DNA of 47,495 nt from assembly GCA_913044235.1 (NCBI GenBank), contig CAJWOS010000001.1:1-47495 (forward strand). The letters are read 5' to 3'. Position numbers and translations under genes: made by a program. The notes beneath the pieces are model-generated. The model searched no databases and was not told the origin of the DNA. It saw only the letters and a list, made by a program, of their open reading frames with translations. This DNA comes from an uncultured Pseudomonadota bacterium. GTDB lineage: Bacteria; Myxococcota_A; UBA796; UBA2385. Of this stretch, positions 6,850 through 44,420 are shown piece by piece (within the stretch, counting starts at the first letter, position 1; each line of letters opens with the position of its first letter).

Positions 6850-7680
6850 ATGCCTTCTCTCGCTTCCCCCATCCCCATGCATTGGCTGGCGGTTCCCTGC
6901 GACTGGGAGCACCTCGCGTCGGCTGCCATCGAGGAAAGCGACGATGGAAAAGCCCTGGGTGCGTGGCTGCTCGACCTTCCTGGTGCCCGCACTCTGTCGG
7001 TCTCCCTGTGCGGTGCGCAGCGCAAGCTACGGCTCGGGTTTCCACAAGTGCCCTTTTCCCCCGACAGCACGCTACCCACCCGAGCGCCCGCACCTCTGAT
7101 CGGCGAGCTGCATACCGCTTTTGGCTGGGAGCTTCGTCTCGACGAAGCGCCGGTCAGCGTCGACCGGTGGCGTCGGGTGGTGGCGCCTCGACCGGGGATG
7201 TCCTTCGTTCGGTTGAGGGATCCAGTCCTCCTGCATGTTCGTACGCTGCAGGCCGAGCTGGCCCAGCGTGGAGTGCCGGTCGAACTGCGGGTCGACCTCG
7301 TGTGGGACTGTTGTAGTGCGGAGCTTGCAGAAGACGCGCGGCTTGCGATGCAGGCCGCCATTCGACGCCGGAGGTCGCGCAGAGAAGTGCTCGGGCTGAT
7401 GCGGATCTGGATGAAGGCGGTCGGGTTGCAGACTGTGCTTCGGCTGCATGCCCATGCAGATCCTGGTCGACTGGTGGAAGCTCGGTTGGTGCGCGCGTTG
7501 TCTCATGACTTTGGGGCACCGCTCACCACCGGTGCCCAGGCAAGGCCCGTTCACGCCACTCCTGATGTGCTGTTTGGGCTGCTCTCGCTGTGCTCGCTGG
7601 CAGAAGCATCGGCAGATGCGGGCCCCGTCGAGTCGCATCGTCGAGATGCGCGCACCGCACTGGCGGAAGTTCCGTTCTGA
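6850..7680 (+). CDS. hypothetical protein, C-terminus ...LAEVPF
   Basis: 276 aa from ATG 6850. The upstream in-frame stretch back to 6322 is R/S/P-rich and overlaps yaeQ. No domain recognised. Convergent with the PcfJ-like gene. Confidence 0.55.
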   Translation: MPSLASPIPMHWLAVPCDWEHLASAAIEESDDGKALGAWLLDLPGARTLSVSLCGAQRKLRLGFPQVPFSPDSTLPTRAPAPLIGELHTAFGWELRLDEAPVSVDRWRRVVAPRPGMSFVRLRDPVLLHVRTLQAELAQRGVPVELRVDLVWDCCSAELAEDARLAMQAAIRRRRSRREVLGLMRIWMKAVGLQTVLRLHAHADPGRLVEARLVRALSHDFGAPLTTGAQARPVHATPDVLFGLLSLCSLAEASADAGPVESHRRDARTALAEVPF

Positions 7681-14060: not shown

Positions 14061-14073
14061 ACCCAGCATCGAC

Positions 14074-15162: not shown

Positions 15163-15550
15163 GGATCGCCTGCAGCGGTAGAAGAAGAGGGCGTCGCCAA
15201 TCGGCGTGGGCCCCCCCTATTCCGTCTGGTGTGTGGGGACGCGGTCGTCTGTGCCTTCTGTGTGGGACCGCAGTGCCGTGGTGCCGCCAGCGGATGTTGG
15301 TGTCGTTGCGGCGCTCGCTCCGCCCGGACTGGGGCCGCTCAGGCTGTTTGTGTGAGTCACGTTTTGGTGGCGGATGCGGCAACGACGTTCGTGAAAAAGG
15401 GCAAGCGCTCGGGTGCCAGACTCTATATAACGATTGTAATGTACCGCGGGCGGCACCGTCCGTCGCCGCAACAGTGGGCGTGTGCACGGCCCCGGCTGGC
15501 ATTCCAGGCGCGCTCCCTGTCTCTTTCCATGCTTCTCAGAAGAGGCGCTG

Positions 15551-17551
<2,001 letters not shown>

Positions 17552-19839: not shown

Positions 19840-20004
19840 TTGTGCTCCATCCAGGAGGTGGCCATCCGACGGGACGCACCCTTTCCATGCGCACGGGTTA
19901 TACCCCCTCGGCCTCGGCCCAGCCTCGGATGTACAATGGTTTCCCACACGAAGCCGGAATGTATGCTATAGTCGAGCCACCCGCAGACCGGTGAAGAAGA
20001 CACT

Positions 20005-29876: not shown

Positions 29877-31244
29877 CTACTCGACGTATCCGAGCTGTCG
29901 CAAGCGTTGGCGAGCAGCACGATCCTCTTGGATTGCAGACGGGGATGGGGACCGTTCCGTCACAGTGAGGGCGGTGATGCGGGACCGAAGCTGTCCCAGC
30001 AGTGGCTCCACTGTCGAGAGGGTGTCGCGCTCACCAGGGTCGATGCGGAGGTTGAAGCGCTCGACCCGGCCATCTGGGTGGAGGATCACCTTTTCCCGGT
30101 CGGTGATCAGCGCGTGCTCGTTGGCACGCTGCCGCACCTTGGAGAGGTCAGGTGTCTTGCCGTAGTAGTGGCTGGTTCGGCTGTAGACGGCTCCGCTGAG
30201 GGCAACCGGGATGCCCGTCGCGAGGGAGTGAAGCTCGAGGGTGGAGACCACGCGGGCCTCCGTCTCGATGGGAATCCCCGGTCCGACGGCAACGAAGGGA
30301 ACATGGATCAGTTCGTTGTAGAGGGTCCACTCGTGGCCGATGCGGTTTCGCTCGAGAAACTCCTCGCCGTGGTCGGCGGCAAACAGGATCAATGGCGCGG
30401 GGTCGGTCGGGAGCGCGGCGAGCAGTCGCCCGATGGCGGCATCGGTGGCATGGATCTCCGCTTCATGCAGCAGCTTGAGACAGGCCAGCTCCTCAGGAGA
30501 CAGCGTGCTTTCCATCTCACGAATCTCAGTGATGTCGAGCCCGTTGGTGACTCGACCGCAGCGTGCTTTTGAAAACCCCATCTGCTCCGCGAGGGCGGGG
30601 TCTGGTCGATAGTTGAAGTGAGGGTCGAAGTAGTGCACCCAGAGAAGGTACGGTGCTTGGCTGTGATCGGAGAGCCATGCGATCGCAGCATCGGTGACTT
30701 GGCTTGCGCCGAGGCCGCGGCGGTCCGTTCCAAAATTTTCGAAGACCTCGAATCCCCGCTGGATCACGGACGGCGGGTACACCGGAACTGCGGGGCTGTG
30801 CCCGAGGACATGGTGATCGGTGAATGCGGCCGTCTGCAGCCCTCTCGACTGCAGCACCTGCGCCAGGGTGGGAAGGGCATCGTAGTGCGCCACGAGGGTC
30901 TCGGGCGCTTCGTTGGCCACCTGGCTGTGGGTGAAGATGGATGTGAGGGCCGGCAGTGTGGCGGGGGCAGGACTGATGGCGTGGGTGTAGCGCCGCCCCC
31001 GTTCGGCCAGTGCGCAGATGTTCGGCGTGAGTCGAGAGGTGGCCCCCGAACACACCATTGAGTCGGCACGCATGGTGTCGACCGTGACGAGGACCACGTG
31101 GGGAGGCTGTTCGGGGGGGGGCTCGGGGGGAGCGGGCGTCACGGGAGCGGGCGTCACGGGAGCGGGCGTGCTCGGGGCTCCGGAGCATCCCACGCCGAGC
31201 GCGATGACCACGGTGCACATGGTGCGGTGGGGAGACAAGAACAT
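29877..31244 (-). CDS. sulfatase-fold (alkaline-phosphatase superfamily) lipoprotein; Thr at the nucleophile position
   Basis: Lipobox IALGVGC, Pro-rich linker. HVVLVTVDTMRADSM ... PAPATLPALTSIFT ... FAADHGEEFLERN. The motif reads T-L-P-A-L instead of C-x-P-x-R. Start at 31244 (MFLSPH...); the maximal ORF reaches 31301. Confidence 0.75.
   Translation of the reverse strand: MFLSPHRTMCTVVIALGVGCSGAPSTPAPVTPAPVTPAPPEPPPEQPPHVVLVTVDTMRADSMVCSGATSRLTPNICALAERGRRYTHAISPAPATLPALTSIFTHSQVANEAPETLVAHYDALPTLAQVLQSRGLQTAAFTDHHVLGHSPAVPVYPPSVIQRGFEVFENFGTDRRGLGASQVTDAAIAWLSDHSQAPYLLWVHYFDPHFNYRPDPALAEQMGFSKARCGRVTNGLDITEIREMESTLSPEELACLKLLHEAEIHATDAAIGRLLAALPTDPAPLILFAADHGEEFLERNRIGHEWTLYNELIHVPFVAVGPGIPIETEARVVSTLELHSLATGIPVALSGAVYSRTSHYYGKTPDLSKVRQRANEHALITDREKVILHPDGRVERFNLRIDPGERDTLSTVEPLLGQLRSRITALTVTERSPSPSAIQEDRAARQRLRQLGYVE
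31131..31169 (-). repeat. 15-bp tandem repeat (x2.6) encoding PVTPA-PVTPA linker
   Basis: AGCGGGCGTCACGGG occurs twice plus a partial third copy, read on the + strand. Confidence 0.85.
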
Positions 31245-31260
31245 GTGGGCTCCCGCAGGG

Positions 31261-32001
31261 TCAGCGAAAACGCATCCGAACGATCCCCAGCATGGCTTCA
31301 TGCATGATCCGGGGGCTCATTTTACTCTCTCCGACTGTGCGGTCGGGAAATACGATCGGAACTTCTGCAACGGTGAAGCCTGACTGGATGGCTCTCCAGG
31401 TGAGCTCGATCTGGAATCCGTAGCCCACACTCTGCACGGCGGAAAGATCGATGGTCTCAAGCACGCTCCGCCGAAAGCACTTGAAGCCGCCTGTCAGGTC
31501 GCGGAGGTTGAGGCCGAGGATGGTGCGGGCGTAGCGATTGCCCAGCCGGCTGATGGCTCTGCGGTGCGCGGCCCAGCCATCGACACCTCCACCTGGCATG
31601 TACCGACATCCCAGCACCAGGTCTGCTTCTTCGGCGGCCTTGAGCAGCTCGGGCAGGTACTTCGGCTGGTGGGAGAAGTCGGCGTCCATCTCCAGAATAT
31701 GGGTGCAAGTGGGGTCTTCCAGGCACAGACCAAAGCCGTGCAGGTAGGCGGGGCCCAGACCACGGGGACCGCTTCGGTGGCTCACGCGAACCCGAGGCTC
31801 GGCGGCAGCCAGCTGGTCGGCGATGTCGCCCGTGCCGTCTGGGCTGTGATCGTCCACCACCAGAATGCGCCCACCGGGGAGCGCGTCGAGAATTGCCGGC
31901 ACGATCCGGGGAAGGTTCTCGGCTTCGTTGAACGTGGGCAGTACGACTATCGGACCGTTGTGGTCACTGGACGATTGAGACAACGCTCGGTCCCCTTGCA
32001 T
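31261..32001 (-). CDS. polyprenol/dolichol-phosphate mannose synthase (GT2, Ppm1/DPM1-like)
   Basis: VVLPTFNEAENL, ILVVDDHSPDGT, EMDADFSH (DxD), GYGFQIE, and the SKMS tail are classic for polyprenol monophosphomannose synthases. Start at ATG 32001; the maximal ORF reaches 32067. Confidence 0.85.
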   Translation of the reverse strand: MQGDRALSQSSSDHNGPIVVLPTFNEAENLPRIVPAILDALPGGRILVVDDHSPDGTGDIADQLAAAEPRVRVSHRSGPRGLGPAYLHGFGLCLEDPTCTHILEMDADFSHQPKYLPELLKAAEEADLVLGCRYMPGGGVDGWAAHRRAISRLGNRYARTILGLNLRDLTGGFKCFRRSVLETIDLSAVQSVGYGFQIELTWRAIQSGFTVAEVPIVFPDRTVGESKMSPRIMHEAMLGIVRMRFR

Positions 32002-32085
32002 GGTGATTGCGGAGAGACCATACACGGCGCGGGCAGAAGCGTTCGGATTGGTTTGTGGGGCTTGCAAGCCATGCTGCAGAGCGAC

Positions 32086-33675
32086 TCACTCTCCGGTGAT
32101 CATCCAGACGCCACCCTGCCCGAGGAGAGCGCCGGCATCATCGTACTGCTTGGTGCCCTCGGCGAGGAATAGGTCCATGTCTCCGTCGGCGTCACCATCG
32201 GCGAAGCGCATTTCGGTTCCGCTTCCCTTCACCAACAGGCCGGGCGAGCCCGCCTCGCCGCTACGGGGCGTAAGGGTTCCCGAGACGGGGCCATACCAGA
32301 CCAGGCTGGCGGCGCCGAAGTCGCGAATGCGGCCCACCACGAGCTCAGCGGCGCCATCTCCATTCCAGTCGCCGAGCTCCACACCAAAACCCACACAGGA
32401 GCCGTCGCAGCTGCTTGGGGTCTCTGCGGTGTCGGGCACGTCGCCTGGGACGCTGGCCAGGAGCGCCGGAGAGTCTGTGATCGAGCCACCGCCCCATGCC
32501 GCGGTGCCGTCGAGCACCCACGCCATGCCGGCTTCCCGGTCGTGGTGGGGAGCACCGATCACCACATCATCCAGGCCATCACCGTTGATGTCGCCGGTCC
32601 GCATGAGACAGCGCCAGCCGTCGTCGAAGACACCGATCATGTCTCCAGGAGCCGTTCCGACCACGCGATTGTCGGCTTCGGTATCGTCGAGCTCCACTGG
32701 CAGGTCGGCCGGACCGCCGAGCAGCGGAACCCGGAAGATGGCGCCACGGCTGTCGCTCACGCCGGGCGCGGCGGCGTAGAGCACTGGGGCGCCAGACGCA
32801 TCGGTGGTGGATGTGTGGCAGCTCAGATGCGGCGGATTGTCGAAGGAGCCTTGGGTGGGGCCTCCGATGAGGCCGATGCCGTTCTGATCGAGACGGCCGG
32901 TGAACGGACCAGCGTGGATCCGCACTGCGCCGCGTCCGTCGAGGGTGAGCGGATCGCCGCTGAGCAGCCAGGTGTCGGTGGCGTGGGTGAGCCACGAAAC
33001 ATCTCGTCCCGCAAAAGCTGCGGTGCCGCTGGGGCTCGTATATTGAATGGAGCCGTCGGCAGCGGAGAGGGAGCCGGAAGCGGTGATGGGCCCATGCACC
33101 AGAAATACATCAGGTACGCTGATGTAAGAGCCGATCGCGACGACCGGGTAGTCCTCGGATGCAGGAGTGCCCACCTCAACGGTGAACCCGGCGTACTGAA
33201 TGCGATCGTCGCCATCGAGGCGCACTTCGTCGGCGAGTAGGCCATCTCCAGAGATGGGGCCTGCGGCGATGTAGACTGCGCCGTGGTCGGCAGGGTCAAG
33301 CCATCCCGGTGCCCCAACGACGGCCTCCGCTGCGCCGTCGCCGTTGAGGTCGGCGGTCGCGAGGTGGATCTTGGGCTGGAACGCGGTGAGCTCGCCGACC
33401 CGACGGGCAGTCCAGTCCCCTTCGCTGAGGTTGAGCGTGCCTTCCAACCGGTCCGGCCCATCGTCTGCGGTGTCCTCGCTGCCCGAGTCGTCGGTGTCTT
33501 CGCCTGAGTCGTCTGCAGAGTCGTCGTCGATGGTGTCGTCGGTGTCCTCGACGATGTCTGTAGTCGTGCCTGTATCGGGGCTCTTGTAGATGTTCCCCAC
33601 AAGCGTATGGTCGCTGCATCCGCACAGGGTCCACGCAAGCAGGACTACCGAAGGTGTCCGTAGTGCTCCGTCCAT
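32086..33675 (-). CDS. FG-GAP/integrin-alpha-like repeat lipoprotein
   Basis: Lipobox TLCGCS and a very acidic D/T/S linker. Repeated Ca-binding-type motifs: DLNGDGAAEAVVGAP, GDINGDGLDDVVIGAP, GDWNGDGAAELVVG, DGDADGDMDLFLAEG. GGAG lies 8 nt upstream of the ATG. Confidence 0.8.
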   Translation of the reverse strand: MDGALRTPSVVLLAWTLCGCSDHTLVGNIYKSPDTGTTTDIVEDTDDTIDDDSADDSGEDTDDSGSEDTADDGPDRLEGTLNLSEGDWTARRVGELTAFQPKIHLATADLNGDGAAEAVVGAPGWLDPADHGAVYIAAGPISGDGLLADEVRLDGDDRIQYAGFTVEVGTPASEDYPVVAIGSYISVPDVFLVHGPITASGSLSAADGSIQYTSPSGTAAFAGRDVSWLTHATDTWLLSGDPLTLDGRGAVRIHAGPFTGRLDQNGIGLIGGPTQGSFDNPPHLSCHTSTTDASGAPVLYAAAPGVSDSRGAIFRVPLLGGPADLPVELDDTEADNRVVGTAPGDMIGVFDDGWRCLMRTGDINGDGLDDVVIGAPHHDREAGMAWVLDGTAAWGGGSITDSPALLASVPGDVPDTAETPSSCDGSCVGFGVELGDWNGDGAAELVVGRIRDFGAASLVWYGPVSGTLTPRSGEAGSPGLLVKGSGTEMRFADGDADGDMDLFLAEGTKQYDDAGALLGQGGVWMITGE

Positions 33676-33982: not shown

Positions 33983-35815
33983 ATGGCGGAGCGTCACCCG
34001 TGGAATGCCGGTACAGTGGGCACGGTCGCCGGTTTGGCGGGCGTCATTGGCGTGGGTATAGGCTACGGCCTGGCCCCGAAAGAGATCGGCAGCGCCGTTG
34101 CTGAGCCGGTCGCGACCGAGGAATTGGTTGAGGAAGCAACCCCGGCTGCCATCCCAGACGCCGAAATGCTTCGGGAGAAGCGGAACAAGCGTGGCAAGCG
34201 TGGCAAGCGGACCGATCGCCAGAGAAAGCGTGCAAAGCCGAGCACGATGGGCGTACCCAGTGGTCCGATTGATCTCAGCAGTGTTCCAGGAGAGACCTGG
34301 GTCACTCGCCACGATCCCGAACAGACCTGGCCCGGCTACACGATGGTGTTCTACCAGCGCCGCGTTCCGATGTTGATCGACATGGATGGGCGGATCGTGC
34401 ACTACTGGCCGGACGTGCGGGCCGTCGGACGCATTCGTCTCACGCCACAGGGCCACTTGGTCTACATCGCGCCGGACGACACGATCCGGGAAGTCGACTG
34501 GGACGGCAACCTGGTGCGTGAGTACAAGTCTGAGGTCGAGGATCGGTTCCCGCACCACGACCTCCAGTGGGTGCCCGATGGTCGCATCGCTGCGGTCTAC
34601 CGCACGAAGTCGGAGTTCACCGACGACATCATCTTCATCGACCCGAGCGGCGAGCTATCCTGGACATGGAAGTCGAAGGGCAATCTCGACGACGAGATCT
34701 CGGCGTCCCCGAGAGACCCGAACGACCTCACCCACTTCAACTCGGTACAGGTGATTCCAGACAACCCCCACCACAGGGCGGGTGATGCTCGGTTCAAGGC
34801 CGGCAACGTGCTGATCAGCGCCCGGAACCTCAGCTACATCTACATGGTGGACCCCGACACGGGAAATGTGGTCTGGAAGTATGGAGAGGGACTGGACTGG
34901 CAGCATGAAGCCGTTTTGCTGGGCGACGACCTGCCTTCGGCGGGCAACATCCTCCTGTTCAACAACCGCTTCCACTCAGAAGAGCGCCGCAGCGAGGTCA
35001 TCGAGATCAATCCGGTCACCAACGAAGTCGTATGGCGCTACGCGAGCGAAGGGTTCTTCTCCGATACAGCCGGCGTGGCGCAGAAGCTCCCCAACGGCAA
35101 CGTGCTGATCACGTCCAGTCGGGGTGGTCGCGTGTTTGAAGTGACGGCAGCGGGAGATGTGATCTGGCAGTGGCAGCCGCCATATCTGCCAATGCGCGTG
35201 AATCGGTATGCGCCCGATTACTGTCCCCAGCTGGAAGCGATGGGGCCGCCTTCGACCAAGTCGGTGGTCTCCCAGGAGACCCGTCCGTACATCGATGGGG
35301 CTCTGTATGACTTCAAGATGTCGGGCAAGGTGCAAAAGATCCCGGTCGATGGGAAGAAGCGAGAGGTGCTCACCGAAGGCAAGGTCTGTCTCGACGTGCA
35401 GTTTCCCGGCAAGCCGAACCTCACATTTGACTTGGGCTTCATTGTTCCCGGAGGCGATGCCACGGCCGCGATGGAAGGAACGATCACCATGACCGCCACC
35501 CCGGAAGTGGGCGAGGTGGAGAATCTCTACGACAAGACCATCACACTGGCCGAGAATGGGGCGTGGAACCGCGAGCGAGTGCGGGTTCCGAAGAAGCTGG
35601 CCTACATGAAGGCGGAGCTGTGCGTGGAGTCGACCGCCACGGACATCCGGAGTCGTGACGACCTTCGGCCCGGCTTGGTGGTGGGGATGCCCAAGATCAT
35701 GTCGGGGTACCGTACCCGAGGCAAAGACCTGCCCAACGCACGCGACAAGAAGACGCAGAAGGCCGAGCAGGAACTGCAGCAGCGCCAGCTCGAGGCTCTG
35801 GGCTACATCGAGTAA
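33983..35815 (+). CDS. arylsulfotransferase (ASST) family beta-propeller protein, N-terminal signal-anchor (paralogue of 18070..19839)
   Basis: About 60% identical by eye to the other ASST gene over its whole length. DLTHFNSVQVIPDN...GNVLISARNLSYIYMVDPDTGNVVWK. TM anchor VAGLAGVIGVGIGYGL. Confidence 0.85.
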   Translation: MAERHPWNAGTVGTVAGLAGVIGVGIGYGLAPKEIGSAVAEPVATEELVEEATPAAIPDAEMLREKRNKRGKRGKRTDRQRKRAKPSTMGVPSGPIDLSSVPGETWVTRHDPEQTWPGYTMVFYQRRVPMLIDMDGRIVHYWPDVRAVGRIRLTPQGHLVYIAPDDTIREVDWDGNLVREYKSEVEDRFPHHDLQWVPDGRIAAVYRTKSEFTDDIIFIDPSGELSWTWKSKGNLDDEISASPRDPNDLTHFNSVQVIPDNPHHRAGDARFKAGNVLISARNLSYIYMVDPDTGNVVWKYGEGLDWQHEAVLLGDDLPSAGNILLFNNRFHSEERRSEVIEINPVTNEVVWRYASEGFFSDTAGVAQKLPNGNVLITSSRGGRVFEVTAAGDVIWQWQPPYLPMRVNRYAPDYCPQLEAMGPPSTKSVVSQETRPYIDGALYDFKMSGKVQKIPVDGKKREVLTEGKVCLDVQFPGKPNLTFDLGFIVPGGDATAAMEGTITMTATPEVGEVENLYDKTITLAENGAWNRERVRVPKKLAYMKAELCVESTATDIRSRDDLRPGLVVGMPKIMSGYRTRGKDLPNARDKKTQKAEQELQQRQLEALGYIE

Positions 35816-35860: not shown

Positions 35861-37009
35861 TCAGATGCCGAGCAGCCACCGGGCGATGAGCACGCGCTGC
35901 AGATCCGAGGTGCCGGAGTACAGGATTCCGCCCACGGCGTCTCGCAGGGCGCGCTCGACCTCGTACTCGGCGGTGTAGCCGTAGCCGCCAAGCGTGCGGA
36001 TGGTGTCGAGGGCACAGGAGACCAAGGACTCACTCACGAACAGCTTTGCGATGGCGGCATCGAGGGCCACGTCATGGCTCTGGTCGAGCTTGGTGGCGGC
36101 CTTGTAGGTGAGCAGGCGGGCGGCCTCCAGCTGGACCTTCATGTTGGCGATGCGATGGGAGACGGCTTGGTGCTTTCCGATGGGCACGCCGCCAGAGGTG
36201 CGCGTGCGGGCGTACCGGACAGCCTTGTCCAGCAACCGGTCCATCACACCCATGTGGCAAGCCACCAGCAGGGTGCGCTCCCAGTTCATGGACTCAAAGA
36301 ACATGGGACCACCGGCGCCGACCCGGCCGACGACGGCCTCCGGTCCCACCCGCACCTCGTCGAGGACCAGCTCGCCGATGGAGCAGGTGCGCAGTCCCAT
36401 GGTGTCAAAGGCCTGACCCCGCTCAAATTGGGGGTGCTCGAGCAGGAAGGCAGTGACGCCGCCGTGGTAGCCCTTGCCTTCTTCGGTTCGGGCGTAGACG
36501 AGTGCCAGATCGGCGACCGTGGCGTTGGAGATGAAGGTCTTCCGACCGGTGATGATCCAGCCGTCGCCGTCGGGGACCGCCTTGGTGGCCATGTCGTATG
36601 GGTCGGACCCCGCGCTCGGCTCGGTCATACCCACCGCACAGATGGAGCGGCCTGAACAGAGGTCAGCGAGGTACTTTTCGTGCTGGGCCTCGCTGCCATG
36701 CTTCCAGATCGGCACCACGTTGGCCAACAGGTGGGCTGAGATCGCCATCAGCAGGCCGCCGTCTGGACAGCCGCGGCCCAAGGCCTCGAGGGCGACCGCG
36801 CAGGAGAGCGGATCGAGTCCCAGACCACCCTTCTCCTCGGGCACCGGCATGCCTTGCAGGCCCATTTCGCCACACTTGTTCCAGAGGTCGCGGGGGAAGA
36901 CGCCGGCCCGATCCCGCTCTTCTGCTCCTTCGCTGAGCTCCGAGCGGCAGAAGGCCAGGATGCCCTTGCGGAGCTCTTTGTGGTCGTTCGTCAGGGAAAA
37001 GGGCATCAT
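35861..37009 (-). CDS. acyl-CoA dehydrogenase family flavoprotein (candidate acyl/aminoacyl-S-carrier-protein dehydrogenase)
   Basis: 382 aa with full ACAD architecture (CAVGMTEPSAGSD; GGYGYTAEYEVERALRDA). ATGA overlap with the upstream adenylase stop. By eye, the MCAD catalytic-Glu position reads YSGT, while an IVD-type Glu (NWER) is present. Confidence 0.85.
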   Translation of the reverse strand: MMPFSLTNDHKELRKGILAFCRSELSEGAEERDRAGVFPRDLWNKCGEMGLQGMPVPEEKGGLGLDPLSCAVALEALGRGCPDGGLLMAISAHLLANVVPIWKHGSEAQHEKYLADLCSGRSICAVGMTEPSAGSDPYDMATKAVPDGDGWIITGRKTFISNATVADLALVYARTEEGKGYHGGVTAFLLEHPQFERGQAFDTMGLRTCSIGELVLDEVRVGPEAVVGRVGAGGPMFFESMNWERTLLVACHMGVMDRLLDKAVRYARTRTSGGVPIGKHQAVSHRIANMKVQLEAARLLTYKAATKLDQSHDVALDAAIAKLFVSESLVSCALDTIRTLGGYGYTAEYEVERALRDAVGGILYSGTSDLQRVLIARWLLGI

Positions 37010-38550
37010 CGCAGGGCCTCCAGGGCGCGGTAGGCGACCTTGCCGGTCGAGGTCTTGGGGATGGCGTCGAGAACCTCGAAGCGATCCGGAATCATGTAGC
37101 GCGGGATGTGTTGAGCGCAGTGGCGCTTGAAGGCCACAAGAGAGATTCGGGGGCCCGGCTTTGTGGTGACATAGGCGTGGATCTTCACGCCCTGGGCTTC
37201 GTCGGGGTAGGCAACGAGGGCGGCTTCAAGTACCGAATCATGGGCGACGAGCGCATTTTCGATCTCCCCGAGCTCAATCCGGTATCCGAAGCGCTTGACC
37301 ATACGGTCGCGTCGACCTCGAAAGATGTAGTTGCCCTGTTCATCTTCCTCGACGAGGTCGCCGGTGCGGTACCACTGCTGTCCGTCGGTGTGTGTAAGGA
37401 AGGCCTCCGCGGTGAGGTCGGGCCGGTTCCAGTAGCCGACCATCACGGAGCCTCCCCGGATGCAGAGCTCACCGAGGGCCCCGCGAGAAACCACGGTGCC
37501 GTCGGTGTCGAGCACGATGGCAGCATCATCGGAGCAGCAGGTGCCGATGGGGTACGGCTCACTGCGCTCGGGGTCCAACACTGCGGGCACGGGGAACCAG
37601 GTGCACACATTGGTCTCGGTGGGCCCGTAGAGGTTGGCAAACTGCGCCGCGTGCCAGCGAGTGGCGAGCTCCCGCAGCTGCCCGGCCGAAAAGACTTCGC
37701 CGGCGTAGAGGACCACTCGAAGGTGGGTGTAGTCGAAGCGCTCGAGCTTGCCCCAGGCCAGCAGCATGCGCAGGGTGGACGGGGTGGAATACCAGACGGT
37801 GATGCCGAGGCGGTGTGTGGCCTCGGCGAGCCCCGCGGGATTCCGGCCGAGGGCCGAGTCGATGAGCACCAGGCTTCCACCGCTCGCCATGCTCACGAAC
37901 AGGTCGAAGATCGAGAGGTCGAAGTGGAAGGGTGCGTGGGAGGCGAAGCGGTCTTGGGCGGTCGTGTGGAATGCCGCTTGGGCCCAGTCCACGAATGCAA
38001 GTGCGCTGTCGTGTGTATGCACCACACCCTTGGGCGTTCCGGTGGAGCCGGAAGTGAACAGGATGTAGGCAAGGTCGGGGCGAATGTCGGCGGACTCGAC
38101 CACGTTGTTGGCCAGGGCCACGAGCAGGAGAGGGTCAGTCCCGATGGCGGGCACCCCGGCAAGGGTGGACTGTGCTTCGGCCTTGAGGCCCTCACCTGCT
38201 ACCGCTTCCCACCGGGATGCCGGCACGAAGAGGGCTTTGGCGCCGCAGGCTTGGATGATGCCTGCGTTGCGGTTGACCGGTGCATAGGCGTCGATCGGTA
38301 CGTAGGCGGCGCCGGCCTTGAGAATCCCGAACACCGCTGTGACCGATGCCAAGGACTTGGGGACCAGGATTGCCACCCGGTCGCCGGGCCGGACGCCTGC
38401 ACGGATGAGCGCTGCGGCGACGGCGTCAGATGTCTGGTCCAGGTCGCCATACGACAGAAAATCGCCGCTGGTCCCGTCGAGGACGGCGACCGCATTGGGG
38501 GTCTGGCTCGCACTATGGCGGAGCAGAGAATGCAGTCGCCGCTTGCTCAT
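37006..38550 (-). CDS. stand-alone amino-acid adenylating enzyme (DltA/PltF-like AMP-ligase)
   Basis: 514 aa from ATG 38550. A3 LAYILFTSGSTGTPKG, A4 HFDLS (Asp retained), A5 NLYGPTETN, A7 YRTGD, A8 GRRDRMVKRFGYRIELGEIE, A10 PKTSTGK. No C, T or TE domains. Confidence 0.85.
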   Translation of the reverse strand: MSKRRLHSLLRHSASQTPNAVAVLDGTSGDFLSYGDLDQTSDAVAAALIRAGVRPGDRVAILVPKSLASVTAVFGILKAGAAYVPIDAYAPVNRNAGIIQACGAKALFVPASRWEAVAGEGLKAEAQSTLAGVPAIGTDPLLLVALANNVVESADIRPDLAYILFTSGSTGTPKGVVHTHDSALAFVDWAQAAFHTTAQDRFASHAPFHFDLSIFDLFVSMASGGSLVLIDSALGRNPAGLAEATHRLGITVWYSTPSTLRMLLAWGKLERFDYTHLRVVLYAGEVFSAGQLRELATRWHAAQFANLYGPTETNVCTWFPVPAVLDPERSEPYPIGTCCSDDAAIVLDTDGTVVSRGALGELCIRGGSVMVGYWNRPDLTAEAFLTHTDGQQWYRTGDLVEEDEQGNYIFRGRRDRMVKRFGYRIELGEIENALVAHDSVLEAALVAYPDEAQGVKIHAYVTTKPGPRISLVAFKRHCAQHIPRYMIPDRFEVLDAIPKTSTGKVAYRALEALR

Positions 38551-38810
38551 CAAGCCGTCTTCTTTTCGACGACGAGTCCCACGATGCCGTTGACCGTGCG
38601 GAGAGGGCCTCCCACAACTTCGTGAGCGTCGATGGAGATCTGGTAGGTGTCTTCGAGGTAGGTGATCAGCTTGAGGGTGTCGATCGACGACAGGATGCCG
38701 TCGCCCACAAGTGGAGTGTCGTCTTCGAGTGTGTCGGACGGTTCGCCGGGAAGGAATTCGTTCAGAATGTAGCTTCGGATTTCCTGCTTCAGCTGCGGTC
38801 GGTTGGTCAT
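38550..38810 (-). CDS. acyl/peptidyl carrier protein
   Basis: 86 aa from ATG 38810. Phosphopantetheine-Ser context GDGILSSIDTLKLITYLE. Stop TGA overlaps the adenylase ATG (TGATG). Confidence 0.8.
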   Translation of the reverse strand: MTNRPQLKQEIRSYILNEFLPGEPSDTLEDDTPLVGDGILSSIDTLKLITYLEDTYQISIDAHEVVGGPLRTVNGIVGLVVEKKTA

Positions 38811-39075
38811 GGTCTGTTCCTCTGGCAACGAGTCCACGGCAACGTACCCCGACAGCGGTCATCTGACAGGTGGGACTCTTGCTCTGTGGCGCCGCCAGTG
38901 GGGCTAACGGGGGTTTCCAACCCGTCGGCGTCGCGGGGTTCAACCGAGCGCGGGAGGTGCACATCGGCTGTGGAGAGAGTGCTTTGGTTGCGTTGGGAGG
39001 CAACACGGCTGGCTGCCATGCACTCGCCGGGTCCTGCGGGTCGCGCTATACCTCCGCCTTGTTTGGAGTGCCGTA

Positions 39076-41610
39076 GTGGCTGAAAACCAGTCCGAGCTGG
39101 GGGCGGTGCAGAACCCCGCAGAAGTCGTCGAACCGAGTGCAGAACCTTGGGGCCCCTACCTGGTCACTCTTGTCCAGCTTGCGCTCGCTGGTGTTGCGAT
39201 CTTCTTGTTGGAGCTGGAGCAGCGCGCAGGTCTGCCCCAGCTGATCCCTGTGGTCGTGGTGGCATTCGCCATCCATGCACGCGCACCGATGCGCTACCGC
39301 CCCGCACTGTTTGTGCTCGCCTCGATCGCCGGGCTCTTCGCGGTGATGAAGGAGGATGCGGTCTGGGTGCTCGGTGCCGGAACGGTGCTGTTCGGGCTTT
39401 GCTCCCTGCCGGTGAAGGTGTGGGCACGGGCGGTACTCGTGGTGGGCGCCGCCGCGGCGTTGTCGCTGTACCGCATCGACGGCACCTTTGGCTGGACCGC
39501 AGCGGCCCTGCCCGTGCTGGGCGGGATGTTTATGTACCGCGGCATTGTGTTCCTGTTCGACGAAAACGCCTCGGGTCGTCAGTCCACACTGGCCCAGCGG
39601 TTCGGCTACTTTTTTATGTTGCCCGCGGTCTGCTTCCCCCTGTTCCCGGTGGTCGACTACCGATTGTGGCGCACGCAGTACTTCCGCGGTGAAGTTGCGG
39701 AGCTGTATCAGAAAGGCATCGGCTGGATCATCCGAGGGCTGATGCAGATGGTGCTGTATCGCGTGATCTACCACTTCCTGGTGCTGCCGGAGTGGGAGAT
39801 TGTGGACAGCACATCGGCCCTGCGGGCCATGGCCACCGTCTACCCCACCTACCTGCGCATCTCGGGGCAGTTCCACGTCATCGTGGGTGTGCTGCTCCTG
39901 TTTGGCTACAACCTTCCCGAGACCAACCGCCGCTACTTTTTTGCCACTTCCTTCCTCGATCTCTGGCGCCGAGCCAACATCTACTGGAAGGACTTCATGC
40001 AGAAGGTGGTGTTCTTTCCCTTCTTCCTGCGGCTTCGTCGGATGGGCGCGCCCAAGCCGATGATCCTCGCCATCGCGCTCACGTTCATCGCCACCTGGTT
40101 CCTGCACTCCTACCAGTGGTTCTGGCTGCGGGGCGATTTCCCGCTCACGATCCAAGACGCGGTGTTCTGGACGGTCATCGGCACCTTTGTGGCGATCGAC
40201 TCGGTTCGTGAGACCAAGCGTCCTCGTCGGCGCGGCGCGGCCGCATCGGGCTTTGTGGTGTCTGAGGCCGCCATCCATGTGATGAAAGTGGTGTGGATGT
40301 TCACCGCGATGTGTGCGCTGTGGTCGTTCTGGACCGCCCCGAGCCTCGAGATCTGGGGTGAGCTCGTCTCGCTGCTGGGCCAGGACTTTGAGTGGGTGTT
40401 CTGGTACCTGGGCGCGGTCGCGCTCGCTTTGGCGGTGGGGATCCCCGGACTGTACTTCTCCACCCGTGGGCCGAAGGGCTGGGACGGACTCTTCCCACCG
40501 GTCACCGTACGCACGTCGGCACCGGTCTTGGCCGGCTTGCTGGCCCTCGGTCTGCTGCCGCGGGCAGGGCTGGTCGAAGGGGATCGTGCCGAGGTCTTGG
40601 CCGCGCTCACCACGCAGAAGCTCAACCAGCAAGACGCGCTCACACAGGTGCGGGGCTACTACGAAAACCTCCTCGTGCGAAACGGCATGATGTCCGAGCT
40701 GGCGATGGCCGATGTCGGTCGTCCCGAGGTGTGGTCCACACTCAGCAATCCCGAGCACACCCGCAAGACCAACGACCTGCGGGGCAGCGAGCTGATGCCC
40801 AACGTCACGGCGGTCCACCGCGGCGAGACCTTCTCCACCAATCAGTGGGGCATGCGCGACAAGGAATACACGAAGAAGAAGCCCGCGGGCACCTTCCGGA
40901 TCGCCCTGCTTGGCTCCAGCTACGCCATGGGCGTGGGCGTGAAAGACAAGCACGTCTTCGAGAACCTGGTGGAAGACTGGCTCAACGACCGGTACGCCGG
41001 TGGCAAGTATGAGCGGTACGAGATTCTGAACTTTGCCAAAGAAGGCTACCTGTTGATCAGCACGGTCGGACAGTGCATGGAGATGGTGCCTTCGTTTGAG
41101 CCCGATCTCGTGATCCTGATCGACCATGCGATGCAGCCGAAGCGACTGGCGAAGCGGATGTCGCGCTCCGACGACCAGGTGAAGTTCTACCCGAAGCCCT
41201 GGCTCAACGAGTGGCTGGAGCGCAACGGCGTGACGGCCGGAACCAACGATCGCGAGGATCGCGAGCAGATGTGGGTGTCGTCGGCCGAGCTGCCGGGCAA
41301 CTTCCTGCGGGATGCCGTAGAGCTCTGCACCCGCGATGGCGCGAAGGCGGCCTGGATGTGGCTGCCGGTCAACAAGCCGTCGCACCCCGAGTATGCCGAG
41401 GTGCGCACTTCGCAGAAAGCCGTCGCAGAAAGCCTCGACATGGTCACACTCACGTTGGACGGAGCCTATGGCGATCACACCGTCGACGAGCTGTCGATTG
41501 CATCCTGGGATGAGCACCCCAACCCGCTTGGTCACCGACTGCTCGCAGACGCGATGATGCGGCAGCTGGAGCAGAACAGCGAAGCTCTGGGCCTGGGCTT
41601 GCGAAAGTAG
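39076..41610 (+). CDS. fused MBOAT-like polytopic acyltransferase :: periplasmic SGNH/DltD-like domain
   Basis: 844 aa, GTG start with GGAG 7 nt upstream. N-terminal half is MBOAT-like (MFMYRGIVFLFDE...FFMLPAVCFPLFPVVDY...RISGQFHVIVGVLLLFGYNLPETNRRYFFATSFLDLWRRANIYWKDF). Extra TM helices follow. C-terminal SGNH blocks are FRIALLGSSYAMG (block I Ser) and SWDEHPNPLGH (block V D..H). Confidence 0.75.
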   Translation: MAENQSELGAVQNPAEVVEPSAEPWGPYLVTLVQLALAGVAIFLLELEQRAGLPQLIPVVVVAFAIHARAPMRYRPALFVLASIAGLFAVMKEDAVWVLGAGTVLFGLCSLPVKVWARAVLVVGAAAALSLYRIDGTFGWTAAALPVLGGMFMYRGIVFLFDENASGRQSTLAQRFGYFFMLPAVCFPLFPVVDYRLWRTQYFRGEVAELYQKGIGWIIRGLMQMVLYRVIYHFLVLPEWEIVDSTSALRAMATVYPTYLRISGQFHVIVGVLLLFGYNLPETNRRYFFATSFLDLWRRANIYWKDFMQKVVFFPFFLRLRRMGAPKPMILAIALTFIATWFLHSYQWFWLRGDFPLTIQDAVFWTVIGTFVAIDSVRETKRPRRRGAAASGFVVSEAAIHVMKVVWMFTAMCALWSFWTAPSLEIWGELVSLLGQDFEWVFWYLGAVALALAVGIPGLYFSTRGPKGWDGLFPPVTVRTSAPVLAGLLALGLLPRAGLVEGDRAEVLAALTTQKLNQQDALTQVRGYYENLLVRNGMMSELAMADVGRPEVWSTLSNPEHTRKTNDLRGSELMPNVTAVHRGETFSTNQWGMRDKEYTKKKPAGTFRIALLGSSYAMGVGVKDKHVFENLVEDWLNDRYAGGKYERYEILNFAKEGYLLISTVGQCMEMVPSFEPDLVILIDHAMQPKRLAKRMSRSDDQVKFYPKPWLNEWLERNGVTAGTNDREDREQMWVSSAELPGNFLRDAVELCTRDGAKAAWMWLPVNKPSHPEYAEVRTSQKAVAESLDMVTLTLDGAYGDHTVDELSIASWDEHPNPLGHRLLADAMMRQLEQNSEALGLGLRK

Positions 41611-41826
41611 TGCACGGCAGGAATGGGGTCGGCTCGGTCCCCCACGGAGTGGCGGCGTGCCATTCCCGCTGGGTGGGGTGCTGGGCGATGAAGGGACGAT
41701 GAGCAGCCCGAGCCTGCCATTCACAAAGTCTGCTGCAAAAATCGGTACGATGTTGGGATATAGTTTGTACTGCCACAAAGGGGTGCGCTGATAGCTGACC
41801 GCACCCGAACACATGCGAGTTGCACC

Positions 41827-43368
41827 ATGCATGACGTCATCATTCTCGGTTCTGGTTTCTCGGGGACCATCCTCGGCGCGATTCTCGCCCGGCACGGGCA
41901 CGATGTGCTGCTTGTCGACGCTGGCCAGCACCCTCGCTTCGCGATCGGTGAGTCCACCATCCCGCAGACGTCGCAGGTGCTTTCTCTCCTGGCGCGGGAG
42001 TACAAGGTGCCCGAGCTCGATAAGATCGGTCTCGACTCGCCCTTCGGCGCACGTGAGGTCGCCGGTCCCTCCTCGGGCATCAAGAAGATCTTCGGCTTCG
42101 TCTACCATGGGCTCGGCGAAGAGCACAAGTCGGAGGAAGCGCAGCAGTTCGGGAACGTGTGGCGCGACGAAAATCACCTCTATCGGCCAGATGTGGACCT
42201 CTGGCTCTTCAACGTTGCGAAGAAGTATGGCTGCAAGGCTCTGGAGAACACGCGGGCTGACTCGGTGGAGATCGACGATGATGGAGTCACTGTTCATGCC
42301 GGCGGCGAGGTGCATCGTGCGCGCTACATCGTAGACAGCACCGGGGTGCGCAGTGTGCTGGCGAACCACTTTGGCCTTCGGCACGAGGAGCCCAACCAGC
42401 GGCTCAAGTCGCAGGCGATGTTCACCCACATGAAGGGCGTGAAGAACTTCGAAGATGTGGCTGAGAGCGAGATGTCGCACAGCTGGACCGACGGTACGCT
42501 CCACCACCTCTTCGACGGTGGCTGGATCTACGTGATCCCGTTCGACAACTGGGAAGGCGGCACCAACCATGTGTACAGCGTGGGCATGGCGTGGGATCCG
42601 GAGCGGCACAGCCCGAAGGACTTCAAGTCGTTCCTCGCGGAGCAGCTGCCCAGCGTGGCGCGGCAGTTTGCGGATGCTGAGCCTGTGCGCCCGTGGATCA
42701 AGACTGGCCGGATCCAGTACTCGTCCACACAGTCGGTTGGGCGTCGGTGGGCACTCTCCGCCCACGCCTCGGCCTTCGTCGACCCCATGTTCTCCCGCGG
42801 CCTCATCGGCGCGGTGGAAGTCATTCGGTCGCTGCTGCCACCCCTTCTCGGTGCACTCGAAGATGACAACTTCGAAGTGGAGCGCTTCGCACCGGTGCAG
42901 AAGCTTCAGGACCGCATGCTCGCTTACGCCGACCGCCTGGTGTGGGCGTCGTATGTGTCGTGGCGCGACTTCGACCTGTGGAACGCGTGGTACCGCGTGT
43001 GGGTGGTCGGCACGATGATGATCGAGACCAACCTCGGGTCGGTCATGCTGATGGGCCGCTTCAGCCGCCACCGTGCGCCCGAAGATCCGATCTCCACCGA
43101 GTTTGAAGATCCAGGCTTCAAGCCCTTCTTCAACCGCTGCTTCGCCATCATGGAGCGCGTCGACGCCGGTGAGCTGAGCTACAAAGACGCGGCCGCTGCG
43201 CTCTGGGCGGAAGTCGAGGGCTACGAGGTCGAGATCACCCTGCCCGACTACATGAAGGGCCAGGAGTACGCGGTGAAGAGCCCTCACGTGCGCGACATGT
43301 TCTTCGGCGACGTCGAGCAGCACGCCAGCTGGGTGGCCGGTCAGGAAGGCGCGATGGCCAGCAAGTAG
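41827..43368 (+). CDS. FAD-dependent halogenase-like oxidoreductase (PltA/tryptophan-halogenase family)
   Basis: 513 aa. GxGxxG VIILGSGFSGTILG; FAIGESTIP; Lys pair GIKKIFG; GGWIYVIPF, a degenerate WxWxIP; second FAD motif SAFVDPMFSRG. Confidence 0.7.
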   Translation: MHDVIILGSGFSGTILGAILARHGHDVLLVDAGQHPRFAIGESTIPQTSQVLSLLAREYKVPELDKIGLDSPFGAREVAGPSSGIKKIFGFVYHGLGEEHKSEEAQQFGNVWRDENHLYRPDVDLWLFNVAKKYGCKALENTRADSVEIDDDGVTVHAGGEVHRARYIVDSTGVRSVLANHFGLRHEEPNQRLKSQAMFTHMKGVKNFEDVAESEMSHSWTDGTLHHLFDGGWIYVIPFDNWEGGTNHVYSVGMAWDPERHSPKDFKSFLAEQLPSVARQFADAEPVRPWIKTGRIQYSSTQSVGRRWALSAHASAFVDPMFSRGLIGAVEVIRSLLPPLLGALEDDNFEVERFAPVQKLQDRMLAYADRLVWASYVSWRDFDLWNAWYRVWVVGTMMIETNLGSVMLMGRFSRHRAPEDPISTEFEDPGFKPFFNRCFAIMERVDAGELSYKDAAAALWAEVEGYEVEITLPDYMKGQEYAVKSPHVRDMFFGDVEQHASWVAGQEGAMASK

Positions 43369-43398
43369 ACGCTGGCTTCGTGCTGACCCGCACCGATT

Positions 43399-43439
43399 CG
43401 CCGCCTTCAGGCTTGCTGGAGGCGGCGTTTTGGTTTGTT
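43399..43439 (+). terminator. rho-independent terminator
   Basis: CGCCGCCTTCAG-GCTTG-CTGGAGGCGGCG (12-bp stem with one G.U wobble) followed by TTTTGGTTTGTT, 30 nt after the halogenase-like stop. Confidence 0.85.
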
Positions 43440-43520
43440 GGACTTGCATGCCCACGCGCAGGGGCGTGGAGAGGGTGGGTCGGTGCTCAGGGCGCCCACG
43501 CCGCTTCGCAGACGAGCCAG

Positions 43521-43535
43521 CAGTGTGCCACACTG
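43521..43535. promoter_or_regulatory. perfect 15-bp palindrome CAGTGTG-C-CACACTG immediately upstream of the EEP gene start
   Basis: Read directly. It ends 6 nt before ATG 43542, so it could be an operator half-site pair or an RBS-occluding hairpin. Confidence 0.25.
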
Positions 43536-43541
43536 TCCACC

Positions 43542-44420
43542 ATGCGCGACCCACTCCGATTCCTGCCTCTCTCGCTGGGGCTCCTTGCATGCGCCTCGCC
43601 CCCGCCGGACAAGGCGCCTGTCGATGATGTGATTCCCACCGAGGGCACGCTCCGGGTGCTCACCTACAACGTGGCAGGCTTGCCGGACGGCTTGTCGTCG
43701 GCCGATGGGGATCTGCTCGACCGCATGCCGGCGATCCAACCACTCCTGTCGGACTACGATCTCGTGGGTCTCCAGGAAGACTTTGACGAGATCGGCCACG
43801 CCGCACTCACCGAGGACACCCCACACGCCGAGGTGCGGTGGTTTTCCGCTCCGCTCAATGACCGGCGCTACTATGGCTCGGGCTTGTCTCTGCTGCTGCC
43901 CCAGCCGGCGGTCGAATACCAGGAAGAGCACTACACCGATTGCAACGGAGTGCTTGATGCAGCCTCGGACTGCCTCGCCTCGAAGGGCTTCCAGACCGCG
44001 ATGCTCACGCTCGGGGGTGAGTCACTGCAGGTGCTGAACACCCACCATGAGGCGGGTGGAGGAGATGCCGACGAAGCCGCGCGCCGCACCCAGGTCGACC
44101 AGGTGATCGCTGCCGTGGATTCCTATGGCGAAGGCCAGGCATTTTTGCTGACGGGCGACTTCAACCTCCGGCCGGGCGATCCAGCCGATGAAGCCAACCT
44201 GGCGCAGTACGACGACGCGGGGCTGCTGCGGGCCTGCGATCTGGTGGACTGCCCTGAGCCGAACCACATCGACCACATCCGTGTGCGCAGCTCGACCACC
44301 CTCACGCTCGAGGTGCTGGAGTGGTCGCGCTCCGAGGAGTTCGTGTCGGCATCAGGCGTGGACTTGTCCGATCATCCGCCGATCGAGGCGGTCATTGCGT
44401 GGTCGGTGGTGGCTGACTGA
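43542..44420 (+). CDS. endonuclease/exonuclease/phosphatase (EEP) family lipoprotein
   Basis: Lipobox LGLLAC. EEP catalytic motifs: LRVLTYNVAGL, LVGLQEDF, LLTGDFNLRP, DHIRV, SDHPPIEA. Confidence 0.8.
   Translation: MRDPLRFLPLSLGLLACASPPPDKAPVDDVIPTEGTLRVLTYNVAGLPDGLSSADGDLLDRMPAIQPLLSDYDLVGLQEDFDEIGHAALTEDTPHAEVRWFSAPLNDRRYYGSGLSLLLPQPAVEYQEEHYTDCNGVLDAASDCLASKGFQTAMLTLGGESLQVLNTHHEAGGGDADEAARRTQVDQVIAAVDSYGEGQAFLLTGDFNLRPGDPADEANLAQYDDAGLLRACDLVDCPEPNHIDHIRVRSSTTLTLEVLEWSRSEEFVSASGVDLSDHPPIEAVIAWSVVAD

Follow-up and report, generated by a model that had tools for sequence, protein, structure and literature searches.

The 47,495-nt stretch of DNA analysed here (the window; contig CAJWOS010000001.1, positions 1–47,495, from an uncultured Pseudomonadota bacterium) contains a five-gene locus in which a carrier-protein cassette with a predicted specificity for L-proline lies next to a gene encoding an 844-residue fusion of a divergent MBOAT-fold membrane domain with an SGNH-fold domain. 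We consider it probable that the products of this locus form a carrier-protein-dependent system by which an acyl group derived from proline crosses the cytoplasmic membrane. This proposal builds on the protein families present at the locus, the proline code of the adenylase, the conservation of catalytic residues and the linkage of the genes across multiple phyla. With slightly less than even confidence, we further suggest that the locus represents a widespread modification of the cell envelope, in which pyrrole-2-carboxyl esters, chlorinated or brominated in some lineages, would be placed on extracytoplasmic glycans or lipids. The route would be a second class of carrier-dependent MBOAT system, with fused MBOAT and SGNH domains, an internal Tyr-Tyr shuttle and an exchangeable loading module (either a proline adenylase with a dehydrogenase or a fatty-acyl-AMP ligase). 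The features of the locus are given below; all coordinates are positions in the window, and those of genes were taken from its list of open reading frames (ORFs).

35861–37009, minus strand: prolyl-carrier-protein-type flavin dehydrogenase of the acyl-CoA dehydrogenase fold, 382 amino acids (aa)
37006–38550, minus strand: stand-alone adenylase for an amino acid (predicted substrate L-proline), 514 aa
38550–38810, minus strand: stand-alone carrier protein, 86 aa
38811–39075, 265 bp: divergent intergenic region separating the two transcription units
39076–41610, plus strand: MBOAT-SGNH fusion gene, 844 aa
39076–40230, plus strand: divergent MBOAT-fold membrane domain, approximately residues 1–385, with H267, WRRxN301IYWKDF and H344 (codon 40105–40107)
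40231–40752, plus strand: three extra transmembrane helices and a linker with G527-Y528-Y529-E530 (40654–40665)
40753–41610, plus strand: SGNH-fold domain, approximately residues 560–844, with G613-x-S615 (Ser codon 40918–40920), N652 and D812-x-H814
41827–43368, plus strand: CtcP/PltM-clade flavin-dependent halogenase, 513 aa, accessory and specific to the clade of the window
43399–43437, plus strand: intrinsic terminator ending the MBOAT-SGNH/halogenase unit

The carrier cassette is predicted to load and oxidise proline

The adenylase contains the Pfam AMP-binding and AMP-binding_C domains and passes the cut-off of the amino-acid adenylation domain model TIGR01733 (374 bits; cut-off 317). 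Its best single-domain match in the PDB is PltF (6o6e, 337 bits), an L-proline--[L-prolyl-carrier-protein] ligase, whereas DltA entries score ~210–220 bits. To read the specificity code we used an alignment of the A4–A5 segment with PltF, with the ten Stachelhaus positions mapped onto the adenylase by motif according to the GrsA numbering. The resulting code, DLFYLALVCK, is identical to that of PltF (DLLYLALVCK) at nine of the ten positions, and from this match we predict L-proline as the substrate. DltA differs from the window adenylase at five specificity positions (239, 278, 301, 322 and 331), and the score against the DltA equivalog TIGR01734 (290 bits; cut-off 560) lies below the level that defines the D-Ala-specific enzyme. 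By these comparisons the adenylase is PltF-like and not DltA-like. Among 54 cassette adenylases, 30 carry the exact PltF code and eight the code of the window. The A4 motif HFDLS with its Asp, from which the initial annotation had argued for an amino acid and not a fatty acid as the cargo, is indeed present, and the TIGR01733 and PltF matches point the same way; by the same model and code the enzyme is not a fatty-acyl-AMP ligase, the identity that would have overturned that argument. An exosortase-A-associated ligase was considered as a further identity and rejected, as TIGR03098 scored 243 bits against a cut-off of 592.

The dehydrogenase comprises three Pfam Acyl-CoA_dh domains (N, M and C). 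In NCBIfam it is matched best by PigA (376 bits; cut-off 500) and RedW (342 bits; cut-off 650), prolyl-carrier dehydrogenases that catalyse a four-electron oxidation, and an orthologue from Mesorhizobium reaches 453 bits against PigA. The best match in the PDB is the prolyl-acyl-carrier-protein dehydrogenase AnaB (4irn, 294 bits), and 5zw0, another L-prolyl-[peptidyl-carrier protein] dehydrogenase entry, follows with 259 bits. The enzyme keeps the Glu of the WER motif and, as in AnaB, has a Ser at the position of the canonical C-terminal catalytic Glu (LYSGTS). Both the WER Glu and the YSGTS motif are conserved among orthologues.

The carrier protein shows a weak, borderline match to Pfam PP-binding (19.2 bits; cut-off 20.8). 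Its phosphopantetheine serine is kept across 62 orthologues, in which the FLPGE and GIL(D/S)S motifs are also conserved. Most of these orthologues read GILDS(I/L)ATLKLV, and the window carrier, of the GILSS form, reads GILSSIDTLKLI; a Ser or Thr replaces the Asp before the phosphopantetheine serine in the carriers of the window and of locus L001 (GILSS or GILTS). The best NCBIfam match of the carrier is the ornithine-lipid model ACP_for_OlsHI (90 bits; cut-off 130). This ornithine-lipid (OlsH/OlsI) lead was dropped because neither a GH3-like nor an OlsI-like gene is present at the locus (cf. PMC12493201).

The 844-residue protein combines a divergent MBOAT fold with an SGNH domain

Among the families named for these five proteins in the initial annotation, Acyl-CoA_dh and AMP-binding were matched, PP-binding and Trp_halogenase were matched weakly, and MBOAT was not matched. 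Neither the 844-residue protein nor its N-terminal half gave a Pfam or NCBIfam MBOAT match, even at E = 10; the Pfam models PF03062 and PF13813 were among those that the N-terminal half did not match. Among the homologues listed, a single one, P0084, bears a precomputed PF03062 match. An AlphaFold2 model built from a 22-sequence alignment of the family reached a mean pLDDT of 78.5 and a pTM of 0.63. In a Foldseek comparison of the N-terminal half with the PDB, DltB (8jem, 6bug) ranked first at E ~1e-6, followed by HHAT, PORCN and LPCAT3; these MBOAT matches had a probability of 1.0, with E-values between 1e-6 and 2e-4 and target-normalised TM-scores of 0.52–0.61. The conserved Asn N301 sits ~40 residues upstream of H344, a pattern typical of MBOAT proteins. 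Motif position, and not a residue-level structural superposition, suggests the equivalence of H344/N301 to DltB His336.

The C-terminal half scores 24.8–28.6 bits against Pfam Lipase_GDSL_2 (cut-off 32.9), and in structure it matches SGNH enzymes, TesA and Axe2 among them (target-normalised TM-scores 0.6–0.8). The family profile aligns SGNH blocks I and V to GDSL esterases. Blocks I (G613-x-S615), III (N652) and V (D812-x-H814) are conserved in 95–97 of 97 relatives. All of these 97 sequences share H344, Y529, S615, D812 and H814; H267, Y528 and E530 are each present in 96, and N301 in 94. The two halves are separated by three additional transmembrane helices (residues 395–420, 439–464 and 478–497), followed in the AlphaFold2 model by a low-confidence linker (residues 515–548). 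The loop formed by residues 382–394 (RPRRRG...) carries four Lys/Arg residues and, by the positive-inside rule, would be cytoplasmic, which would place the linker and the SGNH domain outside. In bacterial MBOAT/SGNH systems the acyl group is held as an acyl-tyrosine on the FXYXXF motif of DltX or of a PatA-type C-terminus carried on two extra helices (PMC12148441). By analogy with this motif, Tyr528-Tyr529 of the GYYE linker would be the candidate acyl-shuttle tyrosine(s).

These results refine the description of this protein as a "DltB::DltD-type fusion" with an MBOAT-like N-terminal half and SGNH blocks I and V. The MBOAT label holds for fold and motifs and fails at the level of Pfam and NCBIfam sequence matches. 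Both SGNH blocks were found and are conserved, with the difference that block V has the spacing D812-E-H814 (DxH) and not the classical DxxH. As for the compound label, it agrees with the fold, the MBOAT half is too divergent in sequence to be called DltB-type, and "DltD-type" is to be read as a statement about the SGNH fold only. Loss of catalytic residues in either half, which would have spoken against the annotation, was not seen, given the invariance of H344, S615, D812 and H814.

The cassette and the fusion gene are linked across many phyla

Homologues of the fusion with a length of ~850 aa number more than 1000 in a 90%-clustered database, and the family forms 808 clusters at 50% identity (E ≤1e-30). 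Among plasmids, the sole good match is one from Microvirga. A scan of GTDB with one genome per species gave at least 536 confirmed fusion loci, and 79 distinct loci were examined. Full-flank loci are the 41 whose flanks extend for 5 kb or more in both directions; the addition of two close relatives, L080 and L081, to the 79 gave 81 clustered loci. According to tblastn searches with the window proteins, carrier, adenylase and dehydrogenase genes adjoin the fusion gene in most of the 79 loci. The usual layout in most other phyla is a co-directional operon in the order fusion, carrier, adenylase, dehydrogenase. In the full-flank reference-genome loci we identified the carrier gene in 34 of 41, the proline-type adenylase gene in 29, the dehydrogenase gene in 29 and all three in 27, with a median distance of 92 bp between the carrier and fusion genes.

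Loci with the cassette span at least 10 phylum-level groups. The hosts belong to Rhodothermales, Gemmatimonadota, Chloroflexota, Acidobacteriota, Verrucomicrobiota and Planctomycetota, and further to Ignavibacteriaceae, Hydrogenedentota, Mesorhizobium, Accumulibacter and Pseudothauera. The expectation that the two divergent units of the window would co-occur in relatives was thus borne out, mostly in the form of one co-directional operon; the "apparent diderm" host was not established, the cassette being present in Chloroflexota as well. The NDH-2 encoded in the window has no named relative above ~57% identity, and the named ones belong to mixed groups. L080 (79% identity) and L081 (63%) retain the divergent layout of the window, with a CtcP-type halogenase gene after the fusion gene and an arylsulfotransferase (ASST) gene beside the dehydrogenase gene. 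Clustering of all ORFs of the 81 loci revealed no other gene family conserved with the core, the halogenase being the next most frequent, and the core has no conserved partner of the ketosynthase, condensation, acyltransferase or thioesterase kind in these loci.

A variant of the locus is found in L012, L024, L030, L055 and L065, where the fusion and carrier genes are kept and a fatty-acyl-AMP-ligase-like enzyme replaces both the adenylase and the dehydrogenase. The replacement ligase (L012:12797–14509, L024:5817–7691) matches PRK09192/PRK07768 with 250–290 bits, which implies that these loci carry a different cargo. Because the carrier gene is kept while the loading module changes, the fusion protein probably takes its acyl group from the carrier, an argument of linkage.

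A halogenase is an optional addition to the four-gene core

The window halogenase has a weak Pfam Trp_halogenase match and, when compared with PDB sequences, scores 354 bits against CtcP (7xgb), 267 bits against PltM (6bzt) and 59 bits against PltA. Its sequence features GSGFSG, a lysine aligned with the GIK/GQK lysine of PltM and CtcP, and FVDPMFSRGL. The WxWxIP motif reads GWIYVIPF, with the second Trp replaced by Tyr, a change that is also present in L080 and L081. The known halogenases of the CtcP/PltM clade act on free substrates (phenols or tetracyclines). The closest similarity of PrnC, an enzyme that chlorinates a free pyrrole, is reported to be to PltM and CtcP (PMC10770391), and by this analogy a pyrrole is a plausible substrate for the window halogenase.

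Members of the halogenase family, with WxWxIP motifs, occur in 15 of the 81 clustered loci, some of which contain two copies. The unit is therefore a four-gene core with an optional halogenase. A different subfamily, represented in L041, is CndH/PltA-like. Locus L016 from Anaerolineaceae has the order carrier, adenylase, fusion, extra SGNH protein, halogenase, dehydrogenase, and its in-operon halogenase scores 412–416 bits against PltA (412), Mpy16 and ChlB4, all of which halogenate pyrrolyl-S-carrier substrates. Such in-operon halogenases of the PltA/Mpy16 type are the strongest indirect evidence in support of a tethered pyrrole in part of the family. With respect to the initial annotation, the window enzyme is a flavin halogenase as had been proposed, and it is not of the PltA type; instead of completing a PltF/PltL/PltE/PltA-type set, it has the standing of an accessory.

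Proposed route and alternative explanations

Based on these comparisons, we propose that the PltF-like adenylase would activate L-proline and load it as a thioester on the 86-aa carrier. The PigA/RedW/AnaB-like dehydrogenase would then oxidise the tethered prolyl group, most likely to pyrrolyl-2-carboxyl-S-carrier and possibly to the dehydroprolyl stage only. The loaded carrier would dock at the cytoplasmic face of the divergent MBOAT domain, a hand-over to which gene linkage and the retention of the carrier alongside changing loading enzymes both point. There, His344 would catalyse transfer of the acyl group to the outer side of the membrane, where Tyr529 or Tyr528 of GYYE may receive it, in parallel with the acyl-tyrosine shuttle of DltX and PatA. 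Ser615 of the SGNH domain, which we place in the periplasm, would take the acyl group and pass it to a hydroxyl of an extracytoplasmic acceptor, thereby esterifying a component of the envelope. This acceptor is most probably a glycan: the neighbours of the cassette in several loci include GT4 and GT2 glycosyltransferases, carbamoyltransferases, LtaS/EptA-like sulfatase-family proteins and extra SGNH proteins, and a GT2 gene, several sulfatase-family genes and genes for FG-GAP proteins lie near the cassette in the window, a context that points to a glycan without identifying it. In the clade of the window, the co-transcribed CtcP/PltM-type halogenase would probably halogenate the pyrrole. The merging of Dlt and pyrrole-cassette logic foreseen in the initial annotation is thereby upheld in its main lines and altered in the halogenase type, the DltB-type label and the diderm host.

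Several observations weigh against this route. Each of its steps is drawn from sequence, a structural model or gene linkage. The MBOAT assignment follows from the fold and motifs of a model of medium confidence with TM-scores of 0.55–0.60, and comparison of the 22-sequence family profile with PDB sequences gave weak SGNH matches only, with no DltB or other MBOAT among them. The GYYE motif differs from the published FXYXXF, and the dehydrogenase and the carrier both score below their NCBIfam equivalog cut-offs. AnaB, the best structural match of the dehydrogenase, halts after a two-electron oxidation, and therefore a pyrrole product is not certain; sequence does not tell two-electron from four-electron oxidation. 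SGNH domains can hydrolyse as well as transfer. The window halogenase, of the free-substrate type, may act outside the pathway, and it lies in a lineage-specific neighbourhood together with an arylsulfotransferase. Finally, six of the 41 full-flank loci have the fusion gene with no cassette gene within 10 kb.

Those six loci, the strong divergence of the MBOAT half and a docking step that we infer would all be accommodated if the genes were adjacent without a shared function, such that the fusion used an acyl-CoA (e.g. acetyl-CoA) in the manner of PatA and AlgI and the cassette made an unrelated proline metabolite. We regard this as very improbable because the linkage is both tight (fusion and carrier genes lie a median of 92 bp apart) and broad (at least 10 phylum-level groups with otherwise unrelated neighbours), and because loci with loading enzymes of the fatty-acyl-AMP-ligase type still keep the carrier gene beside the fusion gene. 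Moreover, the cassette lacks a condensation, ketosynthase or thioesterase partner that would off-load its product. A shared function with a non-aromatic cargo, in which oxidation would stop after two electrons, the envelope would receive a dehydroprolyl or pyrroline-carboxyl group and the window halogenase would be unrelated, fits the preference of the dehydrogenase for AnaB over 5zw0 (294 versus 259 bits), the lack of a halogenase at most loci and the free phenolic or tetracycline substrates of the window halogenase clade. NCBIfam, however, ranks the four-electron enzymes PigA and RedW first, and PltA/Mpy16-type halogenases, which need a pyrrolyl-S-carrier, are found in the operon of L016 and in related loci. 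This cargo appears distinctly unlikely to us, also in view of the similarity of the free-pyrrole chlorinator PrnC to PltM and CtcP (PMC10770391).

The SGNH domain could alternatively serve export and release, hydrolysing the carrier-derived (halo)pyrrolyl group so that free (halo)pyrrole-2-carboxylate or a decarboxylated halopyrrole would leave the cell as a toxin or signal. In structure the C-terminal half is closest to hydrolases (TesA, acetyl-xylan esterases), although SGNH transferases and hydrolases are not separable by fold alone. That some loci contain halogenases, as do the pathways to halopyrrole natural products, would also agree with release, as would the lack of an acceptor-synthesis gene conserved with the core. 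On the other hand, a soluble cytoplasmic thioesterase would suffice for this purpose, glycosyltransferase genes recur beside the cassette, and the characterised bacterial MBOAT/SGNH pairs are all transferases onto polymers (PMC12148441). We consider release unlikely.

If the favoured route, carrier-dependent transfer of a proline-derived acyl group to an extracytoplasmic acceptor, is correct, it would be the second MBOAT route known to be fed by a carrier protein, and its proline-derived cargo would be heteroaromatic. Trans-membrane acyl transfer would then be modular and able to bring building blocks of the natural-product type to the cell surface. Surface polymers esterified with halogenated pyrroles would add a new class to envelope chemistry, one that might serve in defence, adhesion or symbiosis. 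The fused architecture with its invariant GYYE also provides a single-polypeptide model for the acyl-tyrosine shuttle. Because the cassette is carried by culturable hosts, including Mesorhizobium species and Pseudothauera rhizosphaerae, the hypothesis is directly testable; the wastewater organism Accumulibacter, represented here by metagenome-assembled genomes only, is a further host.

Gene organisation and neighbouring genes

On the minus strand, the carrier/adenylase junction reads GCTTGATGAGC, with a TGATG overlap at 38548–38552, and the adenylase/dehydrogenase junction reads CGATGATGCCC, with an ATGA overlap at 37006–37009. The terminator stem (43399–43427) has 12 bp, nine of them G-C pairs, and a 5-nt loop, and is followed by the T-rich tail TTTTGGTTTG. 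No sigma-70-like site was found in the 265-bp divergent intergenic region (38811–39075), and no terminator-like site in the 216-bp gap between the 844-aa gene and the halogenase gene. This organisation is as initially annotated: all five genes are present in the ORF list, both overlaps can be read directly on the minus strand, and the divergent gap and the strong intrinsic terminator were confirmed. A 1514-aa antisense open frame (39046–43590, minus strand) lies opposite the MBOAT-SGNH and halogenase genes, and such frames opposite the fusion gene form clusters across loci as well; we take this frame as a by-product of high G+C and not as a gene.

Upstream of the cassette, the window encodes two sulfatase-family proteins, a GT2 glycosyltransferase and an FG-GAP repeat protein (26061–28415, plus strand; 29877–31301, 31261–32067 and 32086–33675, minus strand). 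One of the sulfatase-family proteins (784 aa) has a long N-terminal extension and an LtaS/EptA-like layout. The sulfatase/GT2/FG-GAP set also flanks the cassette in L080. Two ASST paralogues are present in the window, at 33983–35815 (plus strand) and 18070–19947 (minus strand). The ASST gene next to that of the dehydrogenase has a counterpart at the corresponding place in L080 and L081, and none in the 79 distant loci; it may be linked to the halogenase, e.g. via a phenolic substrate.

An additional stand-alone SGNH/GDSL protein of ~375 aa accompanies the cassette in L016 (6806–7933), L026 (13796–14923), L019, L025, L031, L046, L047 and L074. These are mainly Chloroflexota loci, several of which also contain halogenases. 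No small ORF for a DltX-like microprotein with a C-terminal FXYXXF was found in the 33–45 kb region of the window. Membrane proteins of 50–70 aa ending in ...GPFIYTLF, an exact FXYXXF, are encoded in L016 (1537–1719, plus strand), L022, L027, L057 and L074, directly after a NodU/CmcH-type carbamoyltransferase gene and beside the MBOAT-SGNH cassette. By analogy with DltX, they may shuttle a carbamoyl group or a different one; because they sit beside carbamoyltransferase genes, they are probably not core parts of the system.

Elsewhere in the window, a protein of the RPE65/carotenoid-oxygenase family is encoded at 15482–17551 (plus strand); close to the N-terminus it weakly matches a collagen-like repeat. 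The 1571-aa ORF at 9345–14060 (plus strand) matches no Pfam family at E ≤1e-4, and other large ORFs without matches in the first ~25 kb lie at 2112–3710, 6322–7680, 14050–15699 and 24619–26061.

Comparison with known systems

According to a 2025 paper in the Journal of Biological Chemistry (PMC12148441), Dlt is the only known MBOAT/SGNH pathway with a carrier-protein donor, the others operating without a carrier, and this agrees with what the initial annotation had said of DltB. The annotation had also presented the combination seen here as undescribed. In the literature we found no characterised pathway with this gene set and no description of an MBOAT combined with a prolyl or pyrrolyl carrier system, in a search that left most subscription journals outside its coverage, so that this absence is not proof.

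The resemblance to Dlt lies in an amino-acid adenylase that loads a small stand-alone carrier, and in the pairing of an MBOAT-fold protein with an extracytoplasmic SGNH partner. The differences are considerable. The adenylase carries the proline code of PltF and not that of DltA, and a flavin dehydrogenase would modify the tethered cargo. MBOAT and SGNH domains are fused in 844 aa, with three extra transmembrane helices between them; DltX, which was not found in the 33–45 kb region, appears to be replaced by the internal, invariant GYYE. The MBOAT half goes undetected by Pfam, and the hosts are mostly of Gram-negative or Chloroflexota lineages. On present sequence evidence the system is not a member of the Dlt pathway, because the adenylase fails the specificity test, DltX is lacking, the MBOAT and SGNH domains are fused and the dehydrogenase would modify the cargo.

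The loading and oxidation logic is that of the pyrrole cassettes for pyoluteorin, prodigiosin and similar products (PltF/PltL/PltE/PltA, RedM/RedO/RedW, PigI/PigG/PigA, Bmp and CloN4/N5/N3), with which the system shares a proline adenylase, a stand-alone carrier and an oxidase of the acyl-CoA-dehydrogenase fold, as well as PltA/Mpy16-type halogenases in some loci of the family. Unlike these cassettes, the present one has no downstream assembly enzyme, its sole conserved partner being the MBOAT-SGNH fusion. In addition, the window halogenase is of the CtcP/PltM type, and the dehydrogenase and carrier lie below the equivalog cut-offs.

The transfer half of the system resembles PatA/PatB, AlgI/AlgJ/AlgX and WssH-type systems, in which an MBOAT and an SGNH protein act across the membrane, with an invariant MBOAT His and an SGNH Ser nucleophile. 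As in the PatA/PatB type, extra transmembrane helices after the MBOAT core would bring a tyrosine-containing motif to the outer face. Those systems, however, use acetyl-CoA without a carrier, consist of separate proteins and have a C-terminal FXYXXF, whereas here the two domains are fused, the conserved motif, GYYE(x)L, lies within the protein and the gene is linked to a dedicated carrier cassette. Finally, the AT3-SGNH fusions (OatA, OafA/OafB) likewise join, in one polypeptide, a polytopic acyl-translocating domain and a C-terminal extracytoplasmic SGNH domain, and they use an acyl-tyrosine intermediate (PMC12148441). The protein described here differs from them in having an MBOAT fold instead of AT3, and its donor would be a carrier thioester and not acetyl-CoA.

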